Both the position numbers and the translations under genes were made by a program. The notes beneath the pieces are model-generated. The model searched no databases, was not told the origin of the DNA, and was given only the letters and a program-made list of their open reading frames with translations. A stretch of 64,000 bases of DNA from Ginglymostoma cirratum. Its lineage: Eukaryota. Location of the stretch: assembly GCA_024137785.1 (NCBI GenBank), contig JAHRHZ010000282.1, positions 372,001-436,000 on the forward strand, read 5' to 3'. Below, piece after piece: positions 7,028-61,190 of the stretch; the first letter of the stretch is position 1; every line of letters starts with the position of its first letter.

Positions 7028-7100
7028 ATAGAGGTGGCGCAGCAGGCGGTGCATCAGTTTCATAAGCTGAAGGCCCTGAGTTTAATCCTCAGAGAAGGTA
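7028..7100 (+). pseudogene. tRNA-Met(CAT) elongator-type pseudogene
   Basis: GGCGCAGCAGGCGGTGCATCAGTTTCATAAGCTGAAGGCCCTGAGTTTAATCCTCAGAGAAGGTA follows vertebrate tRNA-Met; anticodon CAT at 7061-7063; 5' acceptor arm and T-loop damaged. Confidence 0.8.
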
Positions 7101-8439
7101 AGCTTGAGAGCTTGTAGCTTTTACTGGCAGCACCTGTAGAAAGAAAGTACAGTTAATATTGCGGGTCCAGAGACCTTCCCTCAGAACACATTTTACTGAA
7201 AGTCATAGAAAACATTGTAACATATCTGTTAAACATTGAATCAAATTCAAACACTTCTGGAAATGCTCCACGTAATGAATGAAAGATGATAACTATCAGC
7301 AAATAAATAGAAGGCAGCCACATAGCTAGCCACTCTCTCTAGGCCCATCATCAATTTAAAACTTTGCATTTTGCCGTAAGTTATTCTTTTTCTGTGCTAT
7401 GGTATTCATTCTGAAATTAATCTGTCACAATGTGTTTGTAACTCTGAATTTTACACTTAACCGTGTCAAAGATAACGTTTCCCTCCTCTTCCTGTATCTC
7501 TGCACTCAGCCTCACAACATTTATTCAAAACAGAAGGAGATAGAAAAGGAAACTATAGGCCAGTTAGATTAATTGGGAGAAAATATAGGCTATTATAATT
7601 TATTTAATAGCAGAACATTAAAAATGCAAAACAGAATAAAGCAGTCAGCATGTCTTCATTCGGGTGGTGGGGGCGGTATGGTGGGGAATTCATGAGTGAA
7701 AATTTATAAGAATTCGAGGTGGGAGTAGCATAAATAAAAGGAAATGAGATGATGTAACATATTTGCATTTCCAGACGATGTTTGATAAGGTGCCACACTT
7801 TACTCAGCTTAATGAACCAAAGAAGTACCGCCTTGCAGGTCGTGTATAGTGGATAGAGGAGTGATTAACTAACAATCAAATATTTGCTTTAGTATTGTCA
7901 CTTGCTGATGCCATCACCAAATAAAGGAGTCAATGGGTATGGAAAGGAACCGCAGAAAATCAAAATGTAGCCCCTCAGAAAGACAAGCCAAGGAGAATCC
8001 TAAACAATACTACTTTTCCAAATCTGCCTTTTGTGCAGAAATGTCGATTCATAAGCAGACTGTAGAATTGTATCATTTAATTGCAAGTGCAAGCAACAGG
8101 GAGAGAGGTTTTGACACTCTAATTCATTCAACCTACAGTCAACGAAACTGTTATTACGCACAGAGATGAACACGTAAGCACAGAAGCATACCTATATTCA
8201 TGCAGACATGTACACATGAATTAAAACAGCGAAGAGGAACTTTGAAAAAGTAAATTTCAAGGTATTCTCTCGTCGTATAAACTGTAAAGGGATGTTTATT
8301 TGGATTAAGTCAGATTGGAATGTTTGGTTGCTGCGGACTAGTTTGCCCGAAGGATCTGTTTCCATGCTGGACAACTCTGTAACTTTTTAAATTAGGGGTA
8401 CAGCTCATCTCTGAGACCAAAAAGGGGATCTCACGTGGA

Positions 8440-8755
8440 CGCAGAGGCATAACTGAGTTGGAAAATGAATACTTTGCATCTATCTTTACAAAAAAGGAGA
8501 TTTCTGTCTCGGCCATGGTGACAGAGGAGGAAGTGTTGTCACCAGAAGTATTCAAAATTTAGAAGGATTAAGATCTAGATAGACTCTTGACACTTAAATT
8601 TAGCAAAGCACTGCGTTTGGACGAGATTCACCCAACGTCTTTGAAGGAAATGAGGGCATAAATTGCGGGGAGACTGGGCATAGTAGTTTAGTCTTCCATG
8701 GTTTCGATGACGTGCCAGAAAACTGAACATGTTAATTTTGTTACTTCCTTTTTAG
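8440..8755 (+). mobile_element. CR1-type LINE ORF2 fragment
   Basis: Degenerate ELENEYFASIFTK..DEIHPTSLKEM..I segment typical of the region upstream of CR1 RT. Confidence 0.6.
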
Positions 8756-8832
8756 ATGGTGCCAGACCTCGTCAGTTTCTCGAGTATGTTCTATTCTGAT
8801 TTTCTGAATAATTGCTTCTTTTATCGGCGTGA

Positions 8833-8850
8833 GCGCGCCCTCTGGTGGAC
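8833..8850 (-). promoter_or_regulatory. CTCF-binding element just 3' of a V RSS
   Basis: GTCCACCAGAGGGCGCGC on minus strand, near-perfect CTCF core. Confidence 0.7.
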
Positions 8851-8912
8851 ACAGACTGGAATTCACGACTTGTGTTCTTCGACAATGTTCTGCACAGCTC
8901 GACAGATTTGTG

Positions 8913-9210
8913 GGCTTCATGGCACAGAGATGTACGGTGTTTTCAGACAGAATTGTAACGATATTGAAAGCGGCCGGTTTGCTTTCTTCGGGTAAGTTAA
9001 CAGAACACCTTTCTGCTACAACTGGAGACTTCTGTTCACTCCCCGTGCTACGCATCTTCAGCAAATATTTCAGAGATTCCCAGTGATACTGGCTGTGCTA
9101 GAAGAGGGTTTGAGTGGAGTAGGTTGTCGAAGAACTGCAGTCCAGATTTATGTTTTATTGCTCCGCATCGTTAAGTTGATCTTTTGTGATTGATTTTTTG
9201 CAATTCGGTC
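8913..9210 (-). pseudogene. TCR alpha/delta-type V pseudogene
   Basis: ..NINLDCSSSTTYSTQTLF*HSQYHWESLKYLLKMRSTGSEQKSPVVAERCSVNLPEESKPAAFNIVTILSENTVHLCAMKP; Trp41 is TAG; heptamer CACAAAT 8912-8906, nonamer-like ACACAAGTC at an over-long 30-nt spacing. Confidence 0.8.
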
Positions 9211-9559
9211 CTCAAACATAGATACAAAATGTGTCAAATGGTGATTGCAACGCCGAGAATGTGCAATCACTATTTGAAATCAACCTCACCAGGCAACAAG
9301 ACAATTATCTGTGGTGATGATCAAAAGGAACACATGGTTTCTTGTTTACAGGTGACCAGAAAAATAACAGAATGTTGGCCCTCCTCGTTTTGATATTGAA
9401 ATGTAAAGCAAATCATGATCCGGCTTCGCTGACTGAGAAGATAGGGAGTCTCCCTGACGCTCAGTTTGTTGCTCTGTCAGTGTTGATGGAAACTACGCAA
9501 CAATTAATAGCAGCTATTGACATTCCTCTGATTATTTCTCTGACATTCTCAACATCGCT

Positions 9560-9733
9560 TTGTCTCCTCTCTTTGCCTTACCCTCGTTTGCTCTGGCGAA
9601 ACTGTTTCTGATTGAAAGAGAAGTCTAGCTTCAGTAAAATGCTTGGCAATGAAGACTGGATAAATAACCGTGGGAGTGAACCAAGTGTTTGACAAAGTTG
9701 AACAAACGCAATCCAGAGTCCACCAGTAGGCGG
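9560..9733. repeat. Local duplication, copy 1 (copy 2 about 11175-11335)
   Basis: Shared CTCGTTTGCT.TGGCGAAACTGT..TGGCAATGAAGACTGGATAAATAACCGTGGGAGTGAAC.AAGTGTTTGA..GCAATCCAGAGT.CACCAGTAGGC. Confidence 0.85.
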
Positions 9734-10174
9734 TGACAAAAACATGTAGAGATTTCACTTTGACATCAGATTGAAAGTTGATCCACAAACGTTATTTAGG
9801 TTTGTATAAACCCTATGAAACAATAATGATCAAAGGTCATAGCGACGGCACCCTAAAATTAAAACAGTCATGTATGGAACGAGAATATCAGGCAGACGTC
9901 ATTTAAAGGTAAAGCACCGAAAGGATTTATGAATTCTGAGACAAAGATTGAGAAAAAAATGCAAGTAATGATGTCAGATAATAATTTCAGTTGGAACATG
10001 GCCAATAACAAATTTTCATGGAGTATTGAACCCAGTGCTGCAAGGTGAGACTGAAGGGCTAGGAAGAGATACAGACATAGGGAGAGAGGGTGGGAGACGA
10101 ATAGACACAGACAGTGAAGGCAATCAGTTTGTTTTCTGTTTTGAAGAGGCCCATGTTTCGAGACATCCAATCCC

Positions 10175-10440
10175 TAACTCTAACAGTAAATGACGCCTGG
10201 TGATAACATTCTTTAATAATCTGTTGTTAAGAGTATCGCCCAACAGTGTTTCTCTTTGAGGTGAATGTAAATCTCTCCACTTTGCTCCTCCATCGCCATC
10301 ATTGAAAGCCCTGGTATCGACAACGAATCCTGGTTTGGAATCAACTGACTGAATGATTTATGTTCTGTCCCCTCTTCATCCTCATGAACAAAAAGTCTCG
10401 CAATCTCTTTTTGCAATTTGGAGCTCGAATTTTCCTGACA
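10175..10440 (-). pseudogene. Possible highly decayed V relic (gamma/light-chain-like C-x-x-W-D end)
   Basis: With several frameshifts: GQNINHSVS*FQ..QGFQ*W..VERFTFTSK..YS(L)..RLLKN..GVIYC..V(R)D; no clear RSS. Confidence 0.3.
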
Positions 10441-10520
10441 TTGCGTGTTAATTATTCTGATCTTGTTTTACCTATTCTTCAATACCTTGTGATGTTTGAA
10501 TGTGGTTTCTTTTGTTTCAG

Positions 10521-10800
10521 CTGTTCCGTGTGTTGATCAGAGCCCACAGGATGACTAGATGCTGTCTCTTGAAGGGTGCGGGCTGAACTGCATTATAAAC
10601 TGTACAATGGTACTGCGGATACGATAGATTGGGACAAAGAAACACTGTCAGGGGCTCCAACATTTATTGACTCAGTATACAAGGGCAATCAAACTACAGG
10701 ACTCAACACATGTTCTGTGACCGAGTGAAGGAGTCCAACATCATTTCTCTCGATGCCAATGTGACCTCGGAGGCCAGAAAGTATGACTATGTGAAGGCAT
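10521..10800 (+). pseudogene. Decayed V relic, inverted orientation
   Basis: Acceptor tttcag, then VPCVDQSPQDD*MLSLEGCGLNCIINCT / NGTADTIDWDKETLSGAPTFIDSVYKGNQTTG; frameshifts and stops, no RSS found. Confidence 0.5.
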
Positions 10801-11945
10801 GCAAAGTGCAGATTCGGTTGTACAATATCTGTGTGTCACAATGTCTCTGCTGTTCCATTACATCTGTTCCAAAAGATACACTTTACAAATAACAGTGAGA
10901 CTAACGGGAGCTACTTTTTGATGTTTAAACGTGCATCTTGATTAACCTACAAAATGTTACAACTGTTACTGCAGATATTGGATGTTGTGGTACCACCTTA
11001 CCTTGGAACGTAAAAAGTGGACAAATTTGCTGACAATTGTAATATACTTATTTTGTGAGTCTTCAGGTTTTGAAATAGTTCATTTCCTTATTCAGAAAGA
11101 CATGGATAAAATTCACGCATAGCCTGAAAATTTTCAAGTAACACACACGTCACACAAGTGCCAGGTTGTGAATGTCTTCTCTTCTCTTTGCCTCACTCTC
11201 GTTTGCTTTGGCGAAACTGTCTTTGCTTGAAATAGAAGTCAAATGCATGGCAATGAAGACTGGATAAATAACCGTGGGAGTGAACAAAGTGTTTGAAAAA
11301 ATGGAACAAGTGCAATCCAGAGTTCACCAGTAGGCCAAATATAACCATCATTCCCGACTGCCAATCACATTGTCATCACCGAAACCCGACTATCAAAGTC
11401 CTGACGGCTTCTATTCAACAGACACTGGACCAGCCATATAAATGCTGTGGATGCTAGAGTAGATCAGAAAGAAAGAATTCCACAGGGAATAATTCACCTC
11501 TCGACTCCCAAACACTGCCCACCATCTACCAGACACACGTGATGTTTGGTACCGAACACTTTCCACTCAGCTGGAATAGCTCAGCTCCAAGAACACTCAA
11601 GAATCTCGAGACCAATCCGGTTACTGCTGTTAGAGGAGAACAGATTTTCACTGAGATGAAAATGCATAGTGTGAAGTGATATTAGTTCCCTGCGAAGGCA
11701 AATGATACAATTACAATTGAAGTGTGAGGATGGGATAGATATGTTCAATTGATTAGCTATAGAAGTCTATAACCAACAAGTGCCAGAAAACAATTTGTAC
11801 AGGTAGTTGTTGGCATGAATAACGTTTACAGACAGAAACTAACTGCGCAAGCGAACCCCGTCTATTCCCGTACAGTGTTCTGCACTTCTTCATCTTTCAA
11901 CAATTTTCATGGTAACCTCCCAAGTGTTTCACTTTCTGAGTGTGA

Positions 11946-11963
11946 GAGCGCCGTCTGGTGAGC
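11946..11963 (-). promoter_or_regulatory. CTCF-like element 3' of a V RSS
   Basis: GCTCACCAGACGGCGCTC on minus strand, about 22-24 nt past the nonamer. Confidence 0.5.
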
Positions 11964-11985
11964 AGGAACTGGAAATATCAACGAT

Positions 11986-12213
11986 GGCTTTTGTACAAAA
12001 TCTGCGAGATGTCTGCATCGTTCTGAGCTCCGTGGCACAGGAATGCACAGTGTTGACTGAGATGCGAACATTGGTGATAGTTAGTTTGATAATCCTGTCA
12101 GTTTTTTTAAGTGTAGAACAAAATCGATGGCTGATGCCGTTGTCCCTGTGCACACCACTCCCAGTAAGCAGAAACATGTACTGTGGAGGCTGCCCAGGCC
12201 ACTGAGCGTACCT
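11986..12213 (-). pseudogene. 5'-truncated V pseudogene with degenerate RSS
   Basis: RYAQWPGQPPQYMFLLTGSGVHRDNGISHRFCSTLKKTDRIIKLTITNVRISVNTVHSCATE; heptamer CAGAACG 12025-12019, 24-nt spacer, nonamer ACAAAAGCC 11994-11986; 5' part replaced by CR1 sequence. Confidence 0.8.
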
Positions 12214-12254
12214 TTAGTCATAAATGTCAGTGCTGCTGGCCTTCAGATTTCTAG

Positions 12255-12965
12255 TTAGCATGATATGTTGTGCACACAGGTATCCCAGACTATATTTGTT
12301 TTGCATTTTTCTTCCGTTTTTATTCATTTAAATAATAACATGTTCTTTTGTTCTTACCAAAATGAAAAGCCATATTTTCCCATATTATACTCCATTTATC
12401 AACATTTTTCCTACTTACTTATCCTATCACTATCTCTCTTAAAATATTTTCATCCTTTTCACAGCTTCACTTCACTCGTATTGATGTCATCTGCAAATCT
12501 GTCTGCTGCACATTTGCTTCCTTCCTTCAAGACATTAATATACGTTGTAAAGGTTTATTGCTGGAGCAGTGCTCCCTGTGGAAACCCACTGGTCACAGGT
12601 CATCAGACTGAAAAAATAACTTTTGTTCCCCTCTCGCTGTTGCCTGCCCTCAGATAATTCTCATTTCTTGCCAATATACTACCTCCAATATCTTGGGATC
12701 TTATCGTATGACTTAGCCTTTTATGAGGTTCCTTGTTGAAACCCAAAACGACACATCTACTGCTTCTCCTCTCTCAAATCTGGTTGAGACGTCTTCAAAA
12801 GAAACTCTTAGATATTAGTCAGACATGATTTTCCTTTAATGAAGTTATGCTGACTCTGTTTGACTAGAATACAGTTGTCCAAATATGCAGCTATCACTTC
12901 CTTAAGTGTTGATTTTGAAACGTTTCCAACAATGGCCTATACTTACCGGCTTTTTGCCTTCCTCC
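12255..12965 (-). mobile_element. CR1-type LINE RT fragment
   Basis: Reverse complement shows VTSGFPQGALL and FADDI RT motifs and a CR1-like K..QHNF.KGKSCLTN block. Confidence 0.75.
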
Positions 12966-13144
12966 CTTTAGAGTCACGAAGGCCATGATAAATTTGCTTT
13001 CACTTTTCCAAAGCTCATGTTTTCATAATAATTCACACCAATCCTGGTGTGTCTTTTCAAAGATTCTTCCATGTGAGAAATCACCAGATCCCTGTTTGGA
13101 ATAATGACATGGCATTCAAAAGAAGTGCATGCAAACTCAGACAC

Positions 13145-13217
13145 AGGCATCACTGGGATTTGAATTAAAGTGCAATTGCTTATTAGACATGTGGTTAGCC
13201 AGCTAAGCCATCAAGCA
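13145..13217 (-). pseudogene. tRNA-Thr(AGT)-derived pseudogene
   Basis: GCTTGATGGCTTAGCTGGCTAACCACATGTCTAATAAGCA..TTCAAATCCCAGTGATGCCT follows vertebrate tRNA-Thr(AGT); anticodon now AAT. Confidence 0.7.
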
Positions 13218-13299
13218 GCAGATCAGGGAGCATCGATATGCCCATTTCCTTAGCCACCTCTTCTCAAGTACTACTTCTTTTTGCTGTTCCAATGTTGTT

Positions 13300-14110
13300 C
13301 AGTGAGAACTTCAACAAGCTTCTATTTTTGCAAAAAATGGACAGTTCAATGCTGAACAGTCTCCACTGAAAGTGCATGGAAAGAGAAAATGTCCTCTTGC
13401 CTTGTTTTAAAGTGATTTTTCATCTGTCAAACGAACGCGATGAAGAGGTGGCATTGATCATCTTGGTGCCCATTAACTGCGTGAACACAAACTGAGGGGA
13501 TATCACAAGAAGAAGCTGGCGATTGTGGTTAATTGATCAGGAGTGATGTGCGATCAAGTGTAAATAATGGGCAACAAAATTTGACCAAATAACACCTCCA
13601 CTGCGCATTACTCAACAGCAAAACACTCACGTCCTGCCTCACGTTTCCAAGTCATTTTGCCTTTCACTTCATTTTACTTCCTTGCTGGTCCTCTGAATTC
13701 GTTCCCGACAGATTGCAGGTTCCCGATTAGAAACTGTAACTTTTAAAATCTGATTCCTGTGATATGGACGGCGCTCACTGAGATAGGATTTATTGTCCAT
13801 TCCGAATTACTCCAGGGATGGAGATGATGTGCTACCTCTTAACCACTTCAACACTGTCACACGTAGGTGCAGCCTGATGCCATTACCGCCAGAATTCTAG
13901 GATTTAGACCTGGCGACAACGAAGGTATAGCGATATACTCCCAACACAGAATGGTGAGTTGCTTGAAGGGTGCCATGCGTGTAAACGTTTTCCCACGTAT
14001 CTGTCGCCATTGTCCTTCTAATTGGAACCAACCTCTCACTGGAGTGAATCTGGCAGATTCAGGACGTAAGCTCTATTTGTAATCAGGAATTCGTTTGCAT
14101 TTGGAAAGTT
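13300..14110. repeat. Segmental duplication, copy 1 (copy 2 about 27940-28700)
   Basis: Shared ATTAACTGCGT.AACACA, ATTGTGGTTAATTGATCAGGAGTGATG, TTATTGTCCAT..C.AATTACT, AGGATTTAGA.C..GC.AC and CA..CAGAATGGTG in the same order. Confidence 0.8.
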
Positions 14111-14600
14111 CACACAGGAGGAAAAAAAAACAAAGTGACAGGCAAGAATTAGTTGCATCACAATCTATTATGACATAACTATTTCAATGAAATTTCATAA
14201 TTTGTTTCAGCTCTATCCCGTGTGTCCTGGAATTTCCTGGAAATCCTGTTCACATTTAAATTCATGTTTCTCTTGTCACATTCCTTGTGCTTTTTCCTGC
14301 TTTCTCCTTAGATTCACTCACTGTTCTTTCAGTTGCTTCTCTTTAGTTCTCAGTCTCCATGGTTCCATATTGCTGTACATGTTTCTCTCACTGGATGGTC
14401 ATCTAAGTCCTTTTCCATTTCATTCTAGTTAATCACCCTGTCTTTTCACACATTTCCACTGTTTTCTTTTGCTACTGTTTGTCTCCTGGTAATGCCATCT
14501 GCTTTTTGTCTGCTGAATCGCTATCAACCTTTCTCCCTATTCGCAGCCCAGATCTCCTGGGATCTCATCACAGATAAAAACAAATATTTAGCCACTTTTT

Positions 14601-14616
14601 CCACCAGATGGCGCGC
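14601..14616 (+). promoter_or_regulatory. CTCF-binding element
   Basis: CCACCAGATGGCGCGC, near-perfect core on plus strand. Confidence 0.7.
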
Positions 14617-16273
14617 TGATCCATTTTATTTATTCGAAGCATGGAAATATTATTGTACGTCTATATCATTGCATTCCAGAATTTAACACGAGTTACACTT
14701 TTAGAAGGAAACGTCAGTTAATATTGAGTAGCCAGCGTAAAGAATTTATGTATATCCGACCTCAGATACATCAGCAGGCCCTAGAAACCTGACATCAGGG
14801 CTTCTGTTTCCAAACTCAAGTACGGTCTTCACTTATTTACAGAATTTGTCTACATACAGGAAGAAAGTCAAGAACCTAATACGCTCAGGTCAAGCTGATA
14901 CTCGGAATGTGCTTCCCACTGCACTGTAATGCCAGTTAAATCGGGTGAGTGGTCAACAACAGACTCGCATCCAATTAATGTACCCAAGCACATCCAGAGG
15001 AGATGATTCTCCTCTCTGGATGGCAGTGGAATTGACCTCAGTACGACCAGAAGTGAAGTGTTCAAACGGTGCCCCACCAGTAATTCACCGGGCAATAGAG
15101 AGCCTTTTTTTGTCTTGGAGAGGTCAAATGAGAAATCTGTCTCCAAGGCAGGTGACATGAGAAAGTGTAAACAATTTGGGTTAATCCAAAGGAAAGGATG
15201 TAAATGTTCCTTCGCGTGAAAATCATCCTTTCGATTGTAAACCCGATTCATTCTCATTAAATCAATTCTTCAGTAGTATCAAAGAACTTCCCGTACTGGA
15301 GACCTCGAAAAAAATTAGAAATTGATGGAGGCAAACTCAGCAGGTCTTGCAACATCTGTGCAAAGAGAGTTGAAGTTTCGAGTCAAGATACCCGTTGTCA
15401 GAACACAACACTGGACTCGAAACTTTCACTGTCTTTTTTTCTATCTCCCCAGTATTATTCCTTATCCGCCATAATCACAAACAGAAAAACGTAATGATTG
15501 AAATTACACCTTCAATACTTTTGATTTTACGTGATATTTTCTGCAGAGAAGTGTTTGCTTTAAAAACAAATTTATTCTACTTTGTACCAACTGTTTGTAG
15601 AGGCTCTTCACACTCTCATTTGAAGCACATGCTTCCATAGGAGACAACATCAATTGAAATCTTGTAACGTAACCATTGTGTGTTCTGATGAACGATTTAG
15701 TTATTATGAATATCAGCAGGTGATTTTGTTCTCACAGAAGAGGTTCCACAGTTTATCGCTTCACATCTGCTGTTCATGAACTGCTATTGCTATCTAATAT
15801 GTAAGTCTTTCCCAAATTCATTCATATAATAGGAGGCACGTAACTAATGGAAATGCATCGCTGAGTTTAAACTATGATAGTCGAATTGTTCACCTTCATC
15901 CCGCACTATCTTCACTGTAGGGAATCCAGAGGATACTGCACAGATATTTTAATGGAAATCTTCGTTCAAGATACAAGCACAATATGAGCTACTGCATTTC
16001 CGTTCCTTCATCCAGCTCTCAGACTGAAATTTTGAGGGGGAAACATTCAGTTTAATTTCTGTACTGGTCCCTGTTCCGTTCACTGTTACCTCTCTTATAT
16101 CAAGCACTGGAGAGGAAACGAGCAGTGAGCTGTTGGATGTCACTTGCTCACAGTGTCAACAATGCACCAATCAGCAGACACTATGGATGTTACTCGAAAT
16201 TGACTCAATTCTCAACTTCAACAATTTCAACTTCTGTTTCCATTGTCCAAATCCGCATTAACCTCTGACAAGC

Positions 16274-16730
16274 GTGTCTGTTATTTTCTATTCATTCTTC
16301 ACATTTGGAGCTCTCATAACTGGTGACTCATTTGAAAATCTAAACACTGTTCCCTATGCAGTCATCAATGATATCGTTTTAAATGTGCGTTCTCCCTATT
16401 TCGTAAACGTTCAGTTGCCAGATGATATTGAGTACTATAGCATGATGATAACAGAATGAAGTTTTGTGCTTCTAAATTTATGCCAGTGTTTTTGGTGCTG
16501 AATCTGTCTCCCAGGAGCCGGTTTCAGACATGATGCTTGAAAAAAAAAGTACAGTGACCATTAGTTACAGTTATTCGATCACAGCCACTCCAAATTCTTT
16601 GCCAATTCATCGTCAGTATCGGGACAAGATCGCAACATTCTTGATCTACATTTCTAATTATGGAGCTGTTATCAGGGCTAAGGGTGTGGAGCCTCGATTT
16701 TCTCCTAATATTGACCGTGTGAGAAGTGAG
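16274..16730 (+). pseudogene. V pseudogene of the Cys23/Trp41-less family, inverted and 3'-truncated
   Basis: Leader (GTG)SVIFYSFFTFGALIT G|gtgact at 16274-16322; V: VFGAESVSQEPVSDMMLEKKSTVTISYSYSITATPNSLPIHRQYRDKIATFLIYISNYGAVIRAKGVEPRFSPNIDRVRSE; no YYC or RSS. Confidence 0.8.
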
Positions 16731-17512
16731 AGGATATACATTGATTACTAGGATGTAACAAACACATTGTAACTGGACAATGTCTCTACATGACTGTTTC
16801 CATCACTTGTGAATAAACGAGCGAGATCTCAGACTGAAATTAAATCCAACAGTGGTGAATTAGTAGGAAGAACACAAGGCAGTTATTAAATTAACCATTT
16901 AATGCATGCTGTATTACCTGTTTCAGCTGTTCATTGCTATTTTTCCCTCTCTGTTTGGATGCTGCCAGTTCAGAGTGACAAGAGAAAGTCTTTCCCTCTT
17001 TTATGCCATGTAGAACTCACAACTCTGCAAACTCAATCTCAGCTCAACAACTGTATTTCTTTCTCTGAAACTACTTATGTCAGGCCACGAAAAGGGCAGC
17101 TCTTTGTTCGGCCGATTTTAGTTCAATCTGTCCGTCAGGTCAGTTCGAACTCAATATTTCTGTCAGATAACTTAGAGCAAAAGTTTGTTTATCAGTTCAG
17201 AGAGAGATTGTGTTGTTTCTACATTCAGTGAGTGATCAAATTATCTCTTCTTTCAGTTTATGACAACCTTTTTTAAAATCTTTTTTTTCTCTAATAAAAA
17301 GAATGCACCATTAATGTCCTTCTTCTCTGCCATCAACATCGGCTTGTGGTTTTCGATATGATCAGACCATGAGACCGAGGTCATCCTCTTGCATGTTTCA
17401 AGGAAGTGACTTCAAATCAAATGCAACCAATGCTGTCAGGTTTTTCTTTTCCAATGTTCTGCAGATTTTTTGGGGCACAGAAATATCACTTTTATCCAGA
17501 AGCAAAAGCGAC

Positions 17513-17911
17513 ATGGCTTTCCTTTCTCTCACTCGTGTGGGTGACTTCCATCGTTGGTAAGGTTGAAACTTTAAAAAGGGGGTTTAATCGCTGTAGGCAT
17601 AAATTAGTGAAACAGAGTCCTCAACTTAGACAACGATCCGAACTGGATTGAAGCACGCTTGGGTTATTGTCTGCAGTTTTAAATTTAATCTCTTCCTTAC
17701 CTAATGAATGAAGCCAAAGTTCGCAGTCAGAAGGTACGTGAGTGTTACTGCTGTAATGAAGGTGTTTTTGCTTAGCTCCCGTTTTCTGAAACAGTCCAGA
17801 CAAGTAGTGCAGACTTCCCATCTCGCAGCTATTGTTGTCTGACTCTGCGGTCTATCACTGTGCAATGAGCCTCACGTTCATGAGAATGCGCAAAAACCTC
17901 ATACAATAACT
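17513..17911 (+). pseudogene. Internally deleted V pseudogene with 23-RSS, inverted
   Basis: Leader-like WLSFLSLVWVTSIV G|gtaagg; 3' end CRLPISQLLLSDSAVYHCAMS; heptamer CACGTTC 17873-17879, 23-nt spacer, nonamer ACAATAACT 17903-17911. Confidence 0.75.
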
Positions 17912-18936
17912 GCAGGTTTCTGGGTCACAGCTGCTGCCTGAAAAGGCCTGCTTGCAGTAGCGGGTCACACACTGAAGCTTCAGTACATTCCTAGGCGGGA
18001 AAGTCCCGAGAGCCATCGACAATATCAGCATTTAAAATTGTTCACAGTAAATGCGGATTCTGATTGATGCATTGTCTATGGAAGGATTGAATTTGTTTCT
18101 GTTCCTTTTGAGACTCGCGGAAAAGTTTCCATTCACTTTCATTAACAATACAAATTCTGCAGTTGGCCTGATACGAAACATTTCTGTGTATCACTGTTTT
18201 GAACAAAAATTGAACAAATAATTTTCCACGTGAAATTCCAGGATTATGGACAGCAACCCACTACTTGAGGAAATCCCTATGATTTGCTGTGACATGATTG
18301 AAGATCTCCCAATATTAAATATGCACATATTAAAGCCGAAGACTCCATAATGTAACAAGGGAAAAAGGGTATATTTTCAGGATACGACGAGAACATAATG
18401 AGCAGTGATATTAATGGTAACAACCTGGCAGGACAGTCTGGGATTTTTTTGGAACATTTGGTCAGATAACTCATTTAATATAAAAGCCCAATTGAAAAAA
18501 AAATCATGCTATCGAATATTAGAATTGCTTTTGGAAAACTGAATTCACCGGATAAGACTATATGTGAATAAAAAGTACATGTTTTTCTTTGTATCATCCC
18601 ACAGTGCTGTCTTGTTGCAGTTATATATTCATTAACGGCTGGAAAACAAAGTCAGTTCAGACATTTTGGCAAGCTATCCTGCCCTAATGCTTTTATTTAT
18701 ATCATGGCATAAATTCCTTAATCACATGCTTGTATCATGTTCAGAATGTATTCGTTTTAATTTAAACAGAGAAATCCTTTCCCAATACTGCACCTATCAC
18801 TCCCTGGCCACGAGTATTTGGATATATTTCAATTCAATGCAGTTCAAGAAAACGTTTCGAAATGTCTTGTTTTCGCTGCAGTTCGCACAGTTCTTGCCCC
18901 TTACCATATCCTGCTCAACTTGGTCCATTATAGCAA

Positions 18937-18975
18937 TGTTTTTGCACAAGGCTCCCTCTGGTTCCTGTTCCTGTG
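18937..18975 (-). other. 23-RSS
   Basis: CACAGGA-23 nt-GCAAAAACA. Confidence 0.85.
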
Positions 18976-19483
18976 TGTCTCAGCACACAGGAATACACAG
19001 CGCTGTCAGACAGTCGTAGGTCACCAGTGGTGAAATTCCCCTCAGGTTTCGAAATGCCCAGAGCTGCACAAAATCGATTTCCCACGCCGTCAGATCTGAG
19101 AACATTTCCGGATTGAAGGATGCATATCAACAGTGTTGGTGATTTACCCAGGTCTTGCAGGTAGAATTGTAAGGAATGTGAAGTAGCTATTTTGATCGAA
19201 TAGCTAAAGTTAATGTTCACCGACTGTCCTTCAAGCTGTTTTGCTGTAGCTGGCTCCTGTGAGATCGAATCTGCGCAATTCACATCGACAGAAAATTAAA
19301 CAGAAACTAAAACTGAGTCTGAAATTACCGTTTTGTTCAATAATGTCATCAAGATAAGAGAACATTTTGCAGCTGAGGTCACTACGTAAATATCATGTAC
19401 AAGGCAAAGTTTTGCGACTTGGTGAACTTACCAGTGAAGAGAACTGCATCTGTGGTTAATGCATAACATGTAACAGCTGACAT
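18976..19483 (-). pseudogene. Open-frame V segment lacking Cys23 and Trp41, with mutated splice acceptor
   Basis: Leader MSAVTCYALTTDAVLFT G|gtaagt 19483-19432; V exon 19285-18976 DVNCADSISQEPATAKQLEGQSVNINFSYSIKIATSHSLQFYLQ..DLRLSDSAVYSCVLR; acceptor reads ctgtCG instead of AG. Confidence 0.85.
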
Positions 19484-46182: not shown

Positions 46183-46561
46183 GGCTGCTGCCAAGTGCCA
46201 CTCTGTCAGTTCCTTTAAAAGCCGAACTCAGACAGGAAGACATCCCTTCAGAGACTCCAATTGGCTCATTGTCACTTCCTTGAGTAATGGTTCACTTCCA
46301 ATAGGGTAATTTTAGTTTGCACCCGAATATTACGGTGAGATTTGCACAAGTCCCTTTGCCTCACTGTGTAAATTCTATGATTGTGGAGATTACAGACTAC
46401 GAGTCTCTTTTAATCATCTCCAAAAATAAAAGCAACATCACGAATCTTTCGAGAAATTACGTGCAATAATTCCATGGCAATGGATGTCGGAAATAGAATG
46501 GGGATTGGAGAACTTTATCGGAATGTCTCTATACCACAAAACTGTGATGAGGAAAATTATT

Positions 46562-50155: not shown

Positions 50156-50349
50156 TACAAGGAATCCTTTCCCCTATGGCATAAATGGTGCTCTGTTTAG
50201 ATACTGCCATTCTCTCCTCTAAATCTGCCATCAACCCAGCCGAAGTAAACAAAAAAGTACTTTTGGCTCTTGCTTGTCCCCAAATCCCTCTACTTCATAA
50301 AAGTAAAAATTGTCGCCTCGAAAATCTGTGCCCATTATTCCCAGGAGAG

Positions 50350-51090: not shown

Positions 51091-52340
51091 ATTTCAGATT
51101 GATGAAATGGTGCAACACCATAATTTCTGCAATGAAATCATGCCAAAACCTCAGTCTTGTGCATGAATGGAATGATGGGTTCTGACAGTAGAGTTGCATT
51201 ACAGAGAATCAGGCTTAACCTGACAAACGAAATGCATCGAAGTGCTTCGCTCCCCTAAATTTCAGGGATCAATACTATGGATTTATACTTTCCTGCCAAG
51301 GTGGAAAGTTCACATTTTCCCACATTGCACTCCAACTGCCCAAATTGTGTCCATTCATTCAGCATTATCTAGATCCCACATGAGATTCACCGTCTTGCCA
51401 GTATTCTTTCCAATATGCCTTTGAATCATGAACAAATTTAACAAACTTCTATTTAGTCGTTAATATAGATTGTAAATAGTGGAAGCATCAGCACTGGTCA
51501 CAGGAGGACATCACTAGTTGCAGCTACCAATCAGAAAAGCGGTCTATTTCTTCCCACTACTTCTGTTAGCTGTGAAATCCCGATACATGATGTTACACTT
51601 AAGAAAATGAGCACGCATTTTCTGTGTTGACCGTTGATCGACAACTTTTTACTCGTTTTGCTTTTGAAATTCAAGTATACACATTCACAGTTTTGTCTCT
51701 ATTCACTTCATGTCATACATTTTCAGAACATTAATCCATCAGTCAAAATGACTTCCCTTTTACGAATTCATTTTGACTCTATCTGACTGTATCATGACTT
51801 TCAAACTTTCCTGCTTGGATGCAAGCTTGCCTGCTGTCTTCTCTGGTGGACTAATGTTTATGATTCAGCGCTTTCTCCGTTGCCAAACAAGTTCTATTGA
51901 TCGTCAGGACAGGAAGGTGTATTGCCCTTATATCAACTGTTAAAAATTAACTTGCGCTGCAGTTGCATGCAACACGAAAAGTAAAAAAAATGCTTCGGTC
52001 CAATCAGCCCATGCTTCCCAAACTAAACTAGTCCCACCATCCCCTGCTTGGATCCAAACATTAAGTAATCATGTATAAAAGAACTGAGACTGAATCAAAA
52101 TTTTAAAAATATATACTAATGAAATTTTAAAAAAAAGAAATCTAGAAGTATATATAGAAATAAGGCTGAATGTCAGGAGAAGTGTCACATCCACGCTACT
52201 ATTCCTCGACCATTTTAGAATATTTTAGAGTTTAGAGGTTTTTTTCCCCGAGATTCTCACATCTCTGCCAGAATCTCTGAGGGTTTCACATCGGAGATAA
52301 AAACCTCACACTGGGCCGGGAACAAATTGCATATAGTTCT

Positions 52341-53254: not shown

Positions 53255-53332
53255 GAGTCCAGTGGTGCAATGTATAAAGTGTCTGACTATGGATCCTAAA
53301 AAAACTGTAAGTTTGAGCCCTACCTGGACTCA
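53255..53332 (+). pseudogene. tRNA-Arg(ACG)-derived pseudogene
   Basis: CCAGTGGTGCAATGTATAAAGTGTCTGACTATGGATC..GTTTGAGCCCTACCTGGACTC versus CCAGTGGCGCAATGGATAACGCGTCTGACTACGGATC; CpG-type decay, anticodon now ATG. Confidence 0.8.
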
Positions 53333-53734
53333 CCACAAAGGCGATTTTTATTTTTTCAGAGGTAAATATTCCTGAGAAAATCAGAACTAGTACATCACCG
53401 GCTTAAAGAAGGAGAAATGCCTTGACTGCATCTGCTTAGTCAGACAGTTCATCTTTTATTCTCCTGTTATTCTTTTCTAAAGATTCACAAAGCAGGATGT
53501 TGGGGTGTCTGTTCTGTTCCATTTCCAGGGGCCACAATGATTGTACCGATGGGTTTGGGAAATTTCACATGAACAGCCTGTCGGAATATTTCCCCTTCTC
53601 ATTCTCTGATGACATTGCCTCTGATGTTCTTGGCGACATTTATTGAAGTAAAATCTTCTGCCTTGCGATGTTAACAGGGGCACATCTGTGAATTGGAACA
53701 TTCACAAAGTGAACAAACAACAAAGATTGTCGCC

Positions 53735-54086: not shown

Positions 54087-54328
54087 TTAGAGAGAGGAAC
54101 GTTTCTGATGAAGGCTGTTCTGCCGTGAAGAACTGCGATAAGAGCATGCACAAGTCAGGTGGCAAGTGTTGCTCGTATTCAGCTGTGAACTTTCTACTTT
54201 TGCAAAAGCCCAAGGTGATAGAAATTCTCGCGGGGCAACATTGAAACATAGAAAAAGAAACACCGCGCTACTGTGATTGAATGGTTAAGGAAATGGCCAT
54301 ATCGATGGGCAACAATGAACTGCTACGT

Positions 54329-54402
54329 GGAGCTGAGTCATATTGTGTTAAAGAGCCTTTCTTCAAAGCGGGTGTTTCTGAGTTCAAATTACAGCAGTAC
54401 TT
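54329..54402 (+). pseudogene. tRNA-Thr-like pseudogene (heavily decayed)
   Basis: GGAGCTG..GTTAAAGAGCCTTTCT..CTGAGTTCAAATTACAGCAGTACTT resembles tRNA-Thr; a tRNA-Ser-like 5' fragment sits at about 54267-54298. Confidence 0.5.
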
Positions 54403-55994
54403 TCACCTTACGTTGGAAGTTCCTCGTTGATTGATCCAACATGGTGATGTGAAAGGAGGCATCTATTGACTGAGCATGCTTCCTGATACGTAGTTGACAA
54501 TAACACTCAATTGATCCTGGAAAATATTTCCTATGTTTGCCAAACACTTCTGCTTTTCCTCATCTTTTATTCTCACTTCTCAATTTCCAGCTTGGTAGGT
54601 ATAACGAGGAGAGGCACGATAAAATACAAAGTGACGGGGTAACATTGCGGTATAATCACTGAAACGACAAGCTGGTCACCTTTTTCACTGCTGTCACGAT
54701 TCATTAATTTTACACCAACAACAAAGACGTCACTGTAAAGCCTGTAATTGTGGTTGGATTGTCTTGGTGATAGATTAGAAATCCTATTTAGAATCCTTTG
54801 AGGGAAGAAACGCATCCTTACCTCAGGCTGATGTAACAGACAATTTATCCAGAGAATGTGAGTCCAGTTCTACACACTCCAGCAAGGCTGTTGGGGGTGA
54901 GGAGGTGGTGGGACTGGTGTTCTCAGCAGCTCTTCTCTCACATTGTCTCCAACGTTCAGACTTTTTACAAAGCAGAAATAGGAAATGAGACAGATGGACG
55001 TACGAAGAAATGGAGGGAGTAAAAAGCATGAGGTGGATACGCAGGGGCAAAGAGAAACAGATAGAGACACATCGTGTGGTAGACACCGAAAGAACCAATT
55101 CCCCATTCGACATGGCCATTAGCGGACAGAAAGGAAAAAAGAAAACAGCCTTTCACCATCTCAGGGCGAAGGAAGGAGCATGAGATCTCATTAAATCATT
55201 TTAAAGTTGTACAATTGACAGTTGTAAGTTAATGAGAGAGAGTTTGATACGAATCTTGATTTAGCAGGTAAACATGATATTCCAACACCCTCTCCATGAT
55301 CAGCCCCACTACCGTACTTTAATATAGAGATGTATAATTTACCTAGTTTGAAGAAAAGTCACTGGACCGGAAAAACTTTCTATCCACGAATGCAGCCAGA
55401 CCTGTTGTGTTTCACAAGCAATTTCTGTTTTTGCTTCAGATTTCCAGGATCCACGTTTCTTTGTTTTATACTAGTCTGAATAAAGTTGGGATTAAAAAAG
55501 ATTATTCTGATATCTCCACACTTTATTTCTTGTTACTGAAATCAATTATAAATTCTATCATGCCTCTGAATTAGCAACATGCAGAAATTCTCATTCCCTG
55601 ACGAAGGACAGAGCGAAGTCTGAGGCAGAAAATGTTGCATTCTTAACACTGGAACACCCGAGAACTGGCTGCCAGGGCTTGTATATTTTCTTAATGACAT
55701 TGTTTTTAACATTTCGATTGCGATATCTTTCACCACATATTAGTTTCTCCCTATCACGAGCTTTACAGGGCGGAAAAGAGCCTTGTTCCCATCGTTTCAA
55801 TGCTGGTGATCAAATGTCCATGTATTCTAATTCCATTTTGTAGCACTTGGCCCGCAGCCTTGAGCGCTCTGAGTTTCAAGTACTAATCTTATTGACATGC
55901 CCCTGTTATGTTGTAATCACTAACGTAACAAACAATGTCACTGAAATCTGAGATGGTCTAATTGCATTCATACTCCATTGGAGAACTGAACCTC

Positions 55995-56900: not shown

Positions 56901-58025
56901 ATCAGCAATTTCAACAACAAAAAACACTTTGTCTAGGTACATGTAGCAACAAATGAAATGAAATGAAATCACATCAAATAGAACAAAGTCAAACACCCTT
57001 CTGAGAGTGACTGAGGCATCTGGATTATGCCTGCTCTGAGTTCTTCACAGCAGCTCTCGGTCCCCAGACACAACTCGCTCCGAAAAAATAGGCATGTTTA
57101 TGTGCAGCACAAGCGACTAATTTCGACAATGAATGATAGCGGTGAGCTAAGACATGAAATGAACATTGAACTGAAATATTCCAACAACCTGTTCATACGC
57201 AATTTTTACCTTTCGAAGCCTATTCCAACACAATCCGTACAGCCCCTGTTAAACTAATAAGACACCACCCGCCAGATATTCTTGAATGAAATGATTTGAC
57301 ACACAACAAACTCTAAACATTTTTATGCCACACCTCTTTCTGCTCCTGTCCCTGTCTCGCCTCCAGCTGCATCGAATCATCCAGGTCCAAAGTCAGTGAG
57401 CTGCTGGATACAACCACAGTGAAATCGTGAAGTCAGTCTTTAGCAGGAAAGCAGGGCCAGGGAATGTAAGACATAAGGTATTGAGAATCAACGGGCTTGC
57501 ACACAGCTAGGTAACGAGACAGTGGGATATTATCTTCCTGATTCTTCCATAAACTGTTTCGAGGAATGTGCACAATGCCAATTATCCCCAGTCACAATGT
57601 CACAATGGATAACTTGTCTGTCAGACAGATCAGGGAATGTCGATTCATCTCCTTCCTGACTCTGGTACATTTTGCAAATGTTATCCTGTCACATCACAAA
57701 CGTAGCTGACTGCCGCTGTTATTAGACGTCTGCAACACAGAAAAAGGCTCTTCAGCCGATCTAGTCTGCATCCGTCACACACAAGTACCTCAGTTATTAT
57801 AGTCTCATTTTCCAGCATTCGGCAGGTAGCCGTGTAGGTCTTTGCATCACAAATGCATATATAATTGCTTCTTAAAAATAAAAAAAAGATTCCTGCCTTT
57901 TCCATCGTAACAGCCAGTAAGTTCCAGATTCTCTCCACCTCGGATCTGTGTGAATGTTTTCCCTCAAATCGCCTATGACTACACCTTCAGCCCAGAGGAG
58001 GGAAACTCCTTCTTCATGGTCTCAA

Positions 58026-58107
58026 CTACAGTCAGTAGGTGCGAAACTGCGAGAGGAAATCCCAATGGATTTCTCATCCTTCGCCTTAATAATTCGGCCA
58101 CGACCAC
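58026..58107 (-). pseudogene. tRNA-Ser(AGA) pseudogene
   Basis: GTGGTCGTGGCCGAATTATTAAGGCGAAGGATGAGAAATCCATTGGGATTTCCTCTCGCAGTTTCGCACCTACTGACTGTAG, 82 nt, collinear with vertebrate tRNA-Ser(AGA); D-loop GG and B-box mutated. Confidence 0.85.
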
Positions 58108-58606
58108 AGAACCACGCTGCCAATCTGTTTTTCCCAATATCTCTACCTGCAACACCGAGGAAGAGAAAATCATTGTTGGGTTTATTTGAATCCAACTACT
58201 TCATAGATTTCTAAAGGGTTAAATATCCATACATGGTGGCTCTTGTTGCTTAATTAAACAATTCGGAATGAACATTAGTTTAAACCAGGAATTTCTGGAA
58301 AACCCAGCAGTACTGGCAGCCTTTGAGGAGAAAGAAACAGAGTAAACGTTTGGGAATTTTATCAGAATTCACTTTTCTTTCTACAGATGTTACCAAACCT
58401 GAGATGAGTTTCTCCAGAACTTATTGGTTTTGATTCACGTTTCGAACATCCAAAGTTCGTTATGCTAGTCATTTCAAAAAAAAAAAAGATTAACTTTCTC
58501 ATGACTCACTGGAAAAGATTTCTGTCTGGGCATATTTTCGTGTCCTCATTGACAATGCAAATCTATGCAGTGAAGAAAGGTGAAGGATTGAAAATAGCAG
58601 CAGCTT

Positions 58607-58680
58607 GGCTCTTTTGTGGTCTCGAACCAAACTGCTTTGATTTAATGGCCGAATGCATGGACGAATCCTGCCACACAGCC
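58607..58680 (-). pseudogene. tRNA-Asn(GTT)-derived pseudogene
   Basis: GGCTGTGTGGCAGGATTCGTCCATGCATTCGGCCATTAAATCAAAGCAGTTTGGTTCGAGACCACAAAAGAGCC, 74 nt, collinear with tRNA-Asn; anticodon now ATT. Confidence 0.6.
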
Positions 58681-61118
58681 AAGACATTCTGCTGCTTGCA
58701 AGATCCCATAATGCGGTGATTTCAAGCTTGGTATTGCCATTTTTGGGGATGACAATTGTCCTCTTTCAGTTTTAACTTTCTAAATTAAAGGCTGGGACTT
58801 TCATTGTAGCGATATGCGAACAGTCTGATTACACCCACTGCAGACACATCCTTGTCACCGGGAATCAGTTTTTCATCAATGACACTCCCTGAATCATAAA
58901 GTGAGAAGTAAATACACAAGCCGATAATTGTACAATCTTCAGCACCATTCTTGAATCCTCAGACAATGAGGTAGTCCGTGTCCAAACCTAGAAAAAACAA
59001 CAACAACATCCAGGATTTCAGCTGAGAAGTGGTAAGTTAGATTGATGTTACTCGACCATCTCCAGCAATACTAAAGTTAACATTTTCTCATTGTGGAATA
59101 CTGCGCAAATAATAACAGAAAGTGCAGATGAAACAATTCCAGTTTCTCTGGACTATTCTTTCTTCTCTTGGTCGCCTAAGAACGTGATCTAGTCTAACCA
59201 AAATAAGTCAAAACCAGCAACAAAGCCCCAAGAAAATTAAAGTGAATCTTCTGATCTAAAACTAAATGTTGTTCCTTCTATCTTGTGACACTTCATGCCC
59301 TGAGATATCCACTGGACCAACAGGTTGTAGACCGTATCAAATGCACTGGTAGTCACCACGTGCTGCCATCCTATTCCATTCCAACGACACCTCAGCACAT
59401 ACGAGGCCACAACATGGAGATCGGCTTCTTCCTTAGAGAGGAAAGCTGACTCCAGGGCACATTCAAATCAGCCATTACTTTACTTAAAAGCAGAAAGTGC
59501 ACGAAGGCCAAAATGGTTAACTCCAATTTCTATTCGTAACGTTCTTTCAGAGTGATCGTCTGCATTTGGCTTTGTCTTACCAACAAGCACGTACATCATT
59601 GCACATCACGTTGTTCATGAATATACTTCCCGTATCCTTATCAGCCCAGTTCGAAGTCATGTTTCATTTATTCATTCACCTGGAGATATCTTTGCTTATG
59701 TAATACTGGGCCATTTGTCAACTGTTGCTGTGTCAGTAAATCCAAACACCAATTTGAGAATTTGAAGCCCATCTTATGCTTGAGTTAGTGGAAGAAATAA
59801 AATAATCTGCAATTTCCTCATGGCCGAGAATTTGTATGTGATAGCCCCGTCGTCTGATCTCCTCCATTGTGAAATTATAATAATTTCAAACAATTCACAC
59901 TAAGGTAGGATAAATCTTTGAAAACTAAAAAAACTCAATAAATCAAATATATAAACTAGTTACAAATGAAAAATCTTGAAATAAACGTGAAATTGATTGG
60001 GATGGGAAAAGGCAGCTTTTGGTTAGAAGAAGCACGTTAGTACCAACACGCAGTGTCTCCACTTGTTGGAGACGCAAAGGCATGGCTAATGGAAAGTGGG
60101 TTCCAGCAAAAATTGCAGCCAGCTATTCGCCCTCAAATAAAGCAGAATTTGTAATGTTGCAAATGTAAGGCAGGCAACGGCAAATTTGTTCGTGTCTTTA
60201 TCCCACAGTAAGTCTAAATGAATTGCATCTTGTGACTTAATTATCCCTCTGAAAACTGTCACTTAGGATAGGTCAGGGAAAATTTTAACTTGTCACAAAG
60301 TGAAAGCATACAGGATTATGATTTCTTTATGTTCCTGCAAGTCAGTGAGTGAGCCAGTGATTTTTTTTTATCATTTGCTATCCCATGATCGCTGCTGTTA
60401 GTGATTCTGGTAAGCCATAGATATCAAATGAGACTTTTTTTTCTCTAAATCTCATGAAATTTCTCCAACATTTATTTCTGTTTCTATGTAAGCAACTTCC
60501 ACCCAGCTCAAATGCTGATATGCACCTTACACGTTACATCATGTTTTGGTGAGTCAATGTGAATTCCCAACATTTTCATTGTGAAACGCTGCAAGATATT
60601 TCTCCGTGTATTTTGCAGCACGTTTACAGAACCACAATTTATTATGTTGGGATGTTCATTGTAAATACTACACTGCATTAACATGAATCCACCAAGAGTT
60701 TGGGACAAATTCTGACACTCAAACTCATAATAGGGAAAGGGGGAGACAGCTCAGAGAAAGAACCTGGAAGTTTCAGAGCTGTCTTCAAAACAGGAAAATG
60801 TGGACTGGATATGCCAGTGAACAACAATTCTTCCTGCAATTTGCTCAAGGAGCTGTTTATGCTCTACTGAAACCCTCAAGACATTGAAGAAATATTCAGA
60901 TGAACAATTCAAAGCTCATTGCACACAAGGCTATGGACCAAGAGCTGGAAACTGGGATTAGAGTAGACGGATTTTTGATGACCGGCATAGATACGATAGG
61001 CTGGAAAGCCTCTGCTGTGTGTAAATATTGGATCATTTTGGAGTACAAACTTATCTTTAGTGAAAATAATTTGAGATAAGAAACAAGGTCAAAAGACATA
61101 TCATTAAGAAAAGATTCT

Positions 61119-61190
61119 TGCCTGGTGGTCTACTGTTTAGAGTTTAACTCTATCACCGTTGTGGCCCGTGTTTGAACTCCAGTCAAAGAA
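61119..61190 (+). pseudogene. tRNA-Glu(CTC)-derived pseudogene
   Basis: TGCCTGGTGGTCTACTGTTTAGAGTTTAACTCTATCACCGTTGTGGCCCGTGTTTGAACTCCAGTCAAAGAA, 72 nt, collinear with tRNA-Glu. Confidence 0.75.

Follow-up and report, generated by a model that had tools for sequence, protein, structure and literature searches.

Decayed tRNA genes in a nurse shark TCR region

We analyze a 64-kb stretch of the nurse shark genome (Ginglymostoma cirratum; assembly GCA_024137785.1, contig JAHRHZ010000282.1, positions 372,001 to 436,000), hereafter called the window and numbered from its first nucleotide. It is chondrichthyan DNA that carries variable (V) segments of T-cell receptor (TCR) type, pseudogenes of G-protein-coupled receptors (GPCRs) and relics of transfer RNA (tRNA) genes. 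The window holds 14 decayed tRNA bodies of six isotypes, 13 of them firm and one doubtful, together with three Ser-like 5′ halves fused to the Thr copies. An initial annotation had proposed at least eight near full-length relics of six isotypes and two weaker fragments; all ten are present at their sites, and five copies are added here (Glu51839, Glu55594, Thr27778, Arg62228 and the doubtful Glu28733; relics are named by isotype and approximate start). It had also judged that none is intact, and this stands: ARAGORN at default stringency calls no tRNA gene anywhere in the window, and the best match to the RF00005 covariance model reaches 28.8 bits, below the gathering threshold of 29.

Scanned across the window, RF00005 finds the Met relic alone (7035–7092, E = 0.07) and gives no match over 52.5–62.5 kb; on a 201-nt stretch it scores Thr54329 weakly (13.7 bits), and it recovers neither Ser58026 nor Asn58607. 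The covariance search that the annotation had suggested upholds Met and, faintly, one Thr, but not the remainder. A generic covariance model (CM) and a generic hidden Markov model (HMM) were trained on 28 tRNAs of Escherichia coli and phage T5, with E values for the whole window. Five of the ten first-listed sites reach E < 0.05 with one or both of these models: Met (1.5e-4), Thr54329 (5e-4) and Arg53255 (0.024) by the CM, Thr13145 (0.019) and Glu25927 (0.02) by the HMM. Profiles that leave out one isotype at a time recover only Met and Thr13145 when built from relics alone, and also Thr54329 and Glu25927 when bacterial seeds are added. In a held-out test, a profile is built from a copy's siblings in the window with the copy itself left out of training. 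The left-out copy then ranks first of the non-training matches for five of five Glu, three of three Arg, one of three Thr and three of three Ser halves, with E values of 5.5e-5 for Glu61119 and 0.047 for Arg57588.

Ser58026 and Asn58607, which no model recovers, are supported by per-site cloverleaf scores (P = 0.007 and 0.005, respectively) and by hand counts. Neither the held-out profiles nor the class II model, made from bacterial Ser, Leu and Tyr tRNAs, find Ser58026, and BLAST of this relic against phages returns chance matches only. Identities counted by hand against printed vertebrate tRNAs range from 61 to 78%. They amount to 64/82 for Ser58026 against Ser(AGA) (Ser-AGA-1-1; PMC10359600 table) and, against sequences in PMC4981973 supplement 5, to 45/74 for Asn58607 (Asn(GTT)), 54/73 for Met, 48/68 for Thr13145 (Thr(AGT)), 51/72 for Glu61119 and 55/73 for Arg53255 (Arg(ACG)). 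CpG decay, which the annotation had noted in several relics, is clear in Arg53255; in Ser58026, only 3 of 17 substitutions are C>T or G>A by hand count.

Glu is the most frequent isotype, with five copies. Glu25927 (25927–25993, + strand), found by the generic HMM, has a 7-nt deletion in its anticodon arm, and is the sole relic in which the A box, the B box and the terminator of four T (T4) are all perfect. Glu51839 (51839–51911, +) is the clearest held-out match (E = 2e-8) and has TTC in the anticodon position. Glu55594 (55594–55664, −) is the positional paralogue of Glu25927, with both flanks in common (held-out E = 0.077, rank 1). Glu61119 (61119–61190, +) has mosaic flanks, the 5′ flank resembling those of 25927 and 55594 and the 3′ flank those of 51839 and 28733. 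The doubtful Glu28733 (28733–28803, −; held-out E = 0.36, rank 1) lies at the junction with a GPCR pseudogene; its 3′ flank is common to Glu61119, and it also falls within a weak GPCR alignment.

The three Thr copies each adjoin a Ser-like 5′ half. Thr13145 (13146–13219, −), a Thr(AGT) relic identified by generic HMM and hand count, has a 5′ flank common to both siblings; its Ser half occupies 13228–13282 (−; alignment, held-out E = 0.017). Thr27778 (27778–27846, −) is assigned from its place in a paralogous block and by alignment; its T arm is partly deleted, the AGT anticodon is kept, and a held-out body profile did not recover it. The neighboring Ser half (27852–27905, −), seen by alignment and held-out profile, matches the 5′ end of a printed Ser(CGA) at 24/32 by hand count. 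Thr54329 (54329–54402, +) was found by the CM and by RF00005, and its Ser half (54258–54312, +) by alignment and held-out profile. This last half is the annotation's Ser fragment at 54267: the fragment is real, and recurs before all three Thr copies, but its likeness to Ser58026 is non-significant (P = 0.09–0.42).

Arg is represented by Arg53255 (53255–53332, +; CM and hand count), an Arg(ACG) relic whose anticodon now reads ATG, by its inverted paralogue Arg62228 (62228–62300, −; Arg(ACG), held-out E = 0.002, adjacent 5′ flank in common at P = 0.004), and by Arg57588 (57586–57662, +), which has no flank in common with the other two. The remaining isotypes are single copies. The Met(CAT) relic (7028–7100, +), supported by RF00005, the CM and a hand count against a printed primate Met, has lost its 5′ acceptor strand, the first 7 nt all being mismatches. 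Ser58026 is a Ser(AGA) relic (58027–58108, −), and Asn58607 an Asn(GTT) relic (58608–58681, −) whose intact B box was found by scan.

Several further candidates were set aside. Matches from relaxed ARAGORN rise from 3 at a 90% threshold to 31 at 80% and to 180 at 70%; we treat them as noise and not as evidence. A second Asn candidate at about 28830–28905 aligns better as a GPR139-like pseudogene (score 144 versus a shuffled maximum of 87). Left uncounted are a lone perfect B box at 36684–36692 (−) with faintly tRNA-like surroundings (generic HMM E = 2.3), a weak candidate at 54800–54870, and one at 29082–29147, within a GPCR 5′ region, which the class II model ranks first (E = 0.056).

Duplicated blocks and the origin of the relics

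Self-comparison of the window places the relics in register within old paralogous blocks of 0.2–2.3 kb, duplicated or inverted and ~66% identical. Block 25697–28000, in which Glu is followed by Thr and its Ser half on the opposite strand, is the inverted paralogue of 54170–55893 (67% identity in the flanks), and block 13120–14150 is a direct paralogue of 27750–28750 (893 nt at 69.5% by BLAST; 70% in the flanks). The Glu 5′ flank occurs again at 60.9–61.1 kb with its offset unchanged; a dispersed repeat fragment accounts for part of this flank, but the adjacent 100 nt match as well. The 51.8–53.6 kb and 61.1–62.1 kb regions match piecewise, with Arg53255 and Arg62228 as inverted partners. The adjacent 100-nt flank of 10 of the 11 multi-copy relics recurs beside a sibling (P < 0.01), whereas four relics (Met, Asn, Arg57588 and Ser58026) have no flank in common with any other. 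By these comparisons, the set would reduce to about seven founders: Glu, Thr with its Ser half, two Arg, Met, Ser and Asn. We do not claim that block ends fall preferentially at tRNA bodies (~3 independent cases versus ~2 expected, a rough estimate). Separately, a 27-nt stretch is identical between 13521–13547 and 28145–28171, in blocks otherwise ~70% alike; it lies within an imperfect inverted repeat (28118–28276) and is borderline for chance.

Shared flanks, an intact Glu consensus, private lesions, enriched terminators and the absence of a SINE (short interspersed element) body together make DNA-level copying of real tRNA genes the best reading of this set, in line with the annotation's view of former genes without SINE body or poly-A tail. 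The five Glu copies are only 40–55% identical in pairs and none is called singly by ARAGORN at default, yet their consensus is called as an intact tRNA-Glu(TTC). With random tie-breaks, the consensus is called in 63 of 200 trials at default and in 194 of 200 at the 90% threshold, while control consensuses are never called (0/100). Glu lesions are mostly private (53 private versus 26 shared minor states, the latter spread over 8 different pairs). Since the consensus is intact and the lesions mostly private, Glu was likely alive when copied. The generic HMM scores the Thr and Arg consensuses (14.0 and 10.8 bits) above every single copy, and the Glu consensus below Glu25927. A T4 terminator lies within 30 nt downstream of 7 of the 14 bodies, compared with a 17% background (P = 0.005).

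Several results weigh against this reading. The Glu consensus is fragile: dropping any one copy leaves 0–7 default calls in 200, and without the doubtful 28733 copy it is called 4 times in 200 at default and 131 times at the 90% threshold. The Thr and Arg consensuses are not called by ARAGORN at default. An Asn consensus is void, as it had included the rejected 28830–28905 candidate, and it too was not called at default. For the four relics without a shared flank, gene origin is argued solely from terminators (in three of the four) and the lack of tails.

Alternatively, the relics could be tRNA heads of retroposons scattered through the genome, or retrocopies lacking a tail, present no more densely than is usual in shark DNA. 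The window has a tRNA-headed SINE of its own, which we take to be of the HE1 type. Four copies of this SINE (at 1205, 4361–4738, 6250 and 27423) have the tRNA-like A and B boxes that the relics also have, and they share a 280-nt body while their flanks differ; the relics share flanks and no body. None of the 14 relic 3′ flanks resembles the SINE body, no A-tail adjoins any of them (a single A-run lies 30 nt off in 1 of 14), siblings have common 5′ flanks as retrocopies would not, and the relics are strongly clumped. A retroposon origin draws some support from the CCA that follows Arg53255 and from the unusual richness of elasmobranch genomes in tRNA loci (Squalomix preprint, bioRxiv 10.1101/2025.06.08.657570). 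Target-site duplications (TSDs) of at least 7 nt flank 0 of 14 relics, a weak test in that TSDs would not outlast such decay. Taken together, we consider a retroposon origin very unlikely.

The blocks also carry a relative chronology. With a strict aligner, identity is 66% in relic flanks, 70–76% among SINE copies, 47–59% among V segments and 55–59% among GPCR pairs, on an unrelated baseline of 44–45%. Because the main tRNA-block paralogues (62–70%) exceed both V–V and GPCR–GPCR identities, the tRNA blocks may have been copied after the window's V and GPCR duplications, assuming similar rates. A SINE insertion at about 27225–27709 is present only in the 25697–28000 copy and absent from its 54170–55893 paralogue; consequently, the block duplication predates the insertion. 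A copy distance of ~0.45 corresponds to ~3 × 10^8 generations, not converted to years, at the pedigree mutation rate of 7 × 10^-10 (PMC10587355). The relics are very old. Part of the Thr–Ser unit was apparently dead before duplication, because the Ser half is broken alike in all three copies.

That shared truncation is what would be expected if the blocks had been imported, dead or dying, from a cluster of tRNA and GPR139-like genes elsewhere, with no working cluster ever at this locus. The relic blocks do adjoin pseudogenes of the GPR139-like family, relatives of which are spread over several large contigs in a single shark species, and the younger age of the tRNA-block paralogues relative to the V and GPCR pairs fits an import as well. 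The probable life of Glu at the time of copying argues the other way, as does the concentration of nine relics, five isotypes and about six founders within 10.5 kb (P = 0.002 versus uniform placement in the window, the copies being non-independent), which is the pattern of a cluster in place. We regard import as unlikely.

Our preferred reading, to which we assign a probability of roughly 70%, is that the 13 or 14 relics are decayed copies of about seven working genes of a mixed tRNA cluster, which were duplicated and inverted in blocks, decayed, and are probably without function now. The founders (Glu, Thr behind an already broken Ser half, two Arg, Met, Ser and Asn) would have been RNA polymerase III genes within or beside the TCR alpha/delta locus, and block duplications and inversions would have amplified the cluster locally. 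The copies would then have left concerted evolution and died independently, their GC- and CpG-rich bodies decaying faster than the AT-rich flanks. More speculatively, some block ends may come from recombination between like tRNA genes, as suggested for Glu by Glu61119, whose 5′ flank is that of one subfamily while its 3′ flank belongs to a second.

A proposed scaffold function and the V segments

The annotation had suggested that the relics may act with CTCF as a TFIIIC scaffold for locus folding. The scans used the commonly given definitions of the A box, B box, recombination signal sequence (RSS) and CTCF motif. The B box is perfect in 2 of 14 relics (Glu25927 and Asn58607), and both boxes in 1 of 14 (Glu25927); by our estimate, two intact B boxes approximate neutral decay at ~70% per-site retention. 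Across the window, B-box matches number 14, versus 16.9 by chance. Between paralogues, tRNA bodies are 55% identical (294/530) and flanks 66% (1818/2754), on the same 44–45% baseline, whereas in functional tRNA gene loci (tDNA) the bodies are more conserved than the flanks (PMC6130373; PMC4041453). An earlier figure of 64% versus 71% used lenient gaps, which give 61–62% even on unrelated DNA, and is superseded. The body–flank comparison is itself open to objection as a sign of neutral decay, as it comprises seven non-independent pairs with flanks picked as alignable.

Retention of the relics as TFIIIC sites that fold or insulate the TCR locus would find precedent in tRNA genes acting as barriers and in a repeated tRNA unit that contains a conserved CTCF site (PMC4041453). 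Glu25927, with its perfect boxes and terminator, lies ~0.6 kb from a V remnant, and CTCF-like motifs are more numerous than expected (12 versus 6.6; 5 of 100 shuffles reach 12), weak ones with two mismatches lying within 300 nt of Met7028 and Glu61119. However, of the two perfect CTCF motifs, one (8835) lies just 3′ of a V segment and the other (14601) 1.4 kb from the nearest relic; and the B boxes and bodies behave as described above, the bodies in reverse of the 1q23 case. A scaffold role for TFIIIC is thus unsupported by the sequence, and we rate it as extremely improbable; the relics are probably without present function. As a separate observation, the CTCF-like motifs at 8835–8848 (−) and 11948–11961 (−) each lie ~70 nt 3′ of a broken V segment, the perfect motif at 14601–14614 (+) has the opposite orientation, and all three have outlasted the neighboring RSSs.

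The relics had been described as superimposed on the V array, which their placement for the most part does not support. A dense run of seven TCR-type V segments, mostly broken, spans 8918–25300 (V profile scan and Pfam V-set), and Thr13145 is the sole relic within it (1 of 14, versus 3.6 expected over 8.9–25.3 kb). One relic precedes the first V, three lie in the V-free gap of 25.7–45 kb alongside GPCR pseudogenes, and nine fall in the V-free 51.8–62.3 kb region, 5.8–16 kb beyond the window's last V. Relics lie at a median of 7.8 kb from a V exon and random points at 3.8 kb (P = 0.017, the copies being non-independent), and no homology chain holds both a V and a tRNA, so we reject the idea that tRNAs were carried in V duplication units. 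The window is pieced together from V blocks and tRNA/GPCR blocks, neither array overlying the other, and the relics have no specific tie to V segments.

A V profile detects V remnants at 8.9, 12.0, 16.5 with 17.8, 19.0, 20.4, 22.9, 25.0 (weak) and 45.7 kb, and finds no V from 46.1 kb to the window end. The last is an open, TCR alpha/delta-like exon (45728–46078, −; Pfam V-set) with a canonical 23-RSS; its nearest named relatives are Ig-like proteins of Callorhinchus at 52–56% identity (three of four matches), and its single-domain matches to solved structures are TCR alpha/delta chains. Fragments at 16497–16730 and 17802–17867 (+) match complementary parts of the V profile (3–80 and 79–100) and are probably one V with a 1.07-kb insertion, oriented opposite to its neighbors; the first fragment is the inverted paralogue of the 19.0 kb V. 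The V-like remnant at 24958–25300 (−) is frameshifted, keeps a near-perfect 23-RSS and scores weakly on the TCR V profile; its C-terminus presumably resembles NAR-TCR/IgNAR. A younger, 170-nt direct duplication, 84% identical, lies between the first two V segments (9563–9731 and 11178–11335).

The GPCR remnants are a GPR139-like pseudogene at 4864–5733 (+; profile and alignment), siblings at ~28700–29150 and 37526–38128 (−), and a fragment near 2.2–2.5 kb. They belong to an elasmobranch-expanded family, annotated mostly as 'probable GPR139' and never as olfactory in 115 hits. Among other repeats, one element of 0.9–1 kb has three copies (30211–31110, 39995–40930 and 59571–60664), 56–58% identical, without tRNA or V match and with no open reading frame assigned to it. 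A segment of 250–500 nt occurs four times (32414–32933, 53387–53640, 57021–57252 and 61760–62115); three copies are near Arg relics, and no tRNA is detectable at the 32.5 kb copy. Retroelement remnants at 46430–50160 lie between ~100-nt palindromic terminal repeats, of which further copies occur at 23.9, 45.3 and 52.4 kb; we take the element to be Penelope-like, with GIY-YIG-like and reverse transcriptase-like reading frames, for which Pfam gave no hit. Older, more diverged copies of the short palindromic repeat lie at 7115, 25482, 26147, 26539, 55348, 56595 and 58282, some of them older than the block duplication; these 7 of 14 copies, plus the young one at 52340, are within 1 kb of a tRNA relic, which is too few for a claim of targeting.

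Relation to known tRNA clusters

We take the tRNA cluster on gorilla chromosome 14 to be the one near TRA/TRD, with which the annotation had drawn a parallel, as with the extended major histocompatibility complex (xMHC). In 30 of the 86 rows of a primate chromosome 14 tRNA table (PMC4981973 supplement), 15 of 21 gorilla rows form this one cluster, made of Tyr (five), Pro (four), Leu (three) and Thr(TGT) (three), with no anticodon family in common with the relics in those rows. A lone Arg(ACG) at chr14:3.9 Mb lies 2.3 Mb from it. Some types that match relics, namely Met, Thr(AGT) and Arg(ACG), are present in the gorilla chromosome 6 cluster at 27–28.6 Mb, and the same types also occur on other gorilla chromosomes in this source. 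The xMHC class I region holds tRNA, histone and olfactory-receptor clusters (PMC2776167). Like the window, it combines tRNA loci with a GPCR family in the vicinity of immune genes, and the tRNA types partly overlap; in the window, however, the GPCRs are GPR139-like pseudogenes and not olfactory receptors, the tRNAs are dead, and the neighbors are TCR V segments. On the material compared, the proposed parallel is not supported.

Our reading of the relics as a decayed mixed cluster would be compatible with the view that the antigen-receptor complex and the xMHC both inherited one ancestral tRNA-rich segment. The Ig/TCR region has been proposed as an MHC paralogue (PMC12227049; PMC10751288), tRNA–histone co-clustering has been argued to be >450 Myr old (Squalomix preprint), and the chromosome 6 types and the lone chromosome 14 Arg(ACG) agree with such descent. 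The chromosome 14 anticodon families, the occurrence of the same types on other gorilla chromosomes and the GPCR identities do not, and tDNA synteny turns over about as fast as unconstrained sequence (PMC2888827). We judge common descent to be quite unlikely. More specific still is the proposal that the jawed-vertebrate TCR alpha/delta locus arose inside an active tRNA cluster paralogous to the xMHC supercluster, where identical tRNAs would have shuffled and inverted V- and GPCR-bearing blocks by recombination; we hold this to be improbable.

Closer likenesses are found among heterogeneous tDNA clusters (PMC2888827; PMC4981973), where isotypes are mixed within ~1 kb and rapid turnover by local duplication, inversion and pseudogenization is the documented norm. 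The window differs in that its members are all dead and too decayed for standard finders, and in that its units are multi-gene blocks, not single genes. In the features open to testing, the relic set agrees with a heterogeneous tDNA cluster that has undergone turnover, and the mechanism looks like ordinary tRNA gene turnover of a known kind. On red stingray chromosome 28, >300 tRNA loci lie beside histone genes (bioRxiv 10.1101/2025.06.08.657570), alike in lineage and clustering; those loci pass a tRNAscan-SE score of 50, with no TCR link in the passages that describe them, and in the shark window no histone open reading frame was noticed. The human 1q23.3 tandem repeat (PMC4041453) is alike in that a multi-tRNA unit is copied as a DNA block. 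There, the array is regular and head-to-tail, with tRNAs and a CTCF site conserved but not the spacer, whereas in the shark the bodies are less conserved than the spacers, the copies are scattered and inverted, and the main blocks lack a perfect CTCF motif.

Two papers on the organization of the shark antigen-receptor complex and MHC do not mention tRNA (PMC12227049, main text and both supplements; PMC10751288, main text), and a literature search found no relevant paper, which is no proof of novelty as most subscription journals lie outside its coverage. tRNA turnover is known to leave dead clusters behind, so the mechanism is ordinary; the interest of this cluster is modest and comes from its location. 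Default finders miss the relics, yet as fossil markers they show in what order, and at what relative age, rearrangements took place in a shark TCR alpha/delta region, and they allow a concrete test of whether a tRNA-rich neighborhood was common to the antigen-receptor complex and the MHC. If it is true that TCR alpha/delta arose inside a tRNA cluster, these fossils would mark the ancestral antigen-receptor/MHC chromosome in a way that can be dated.

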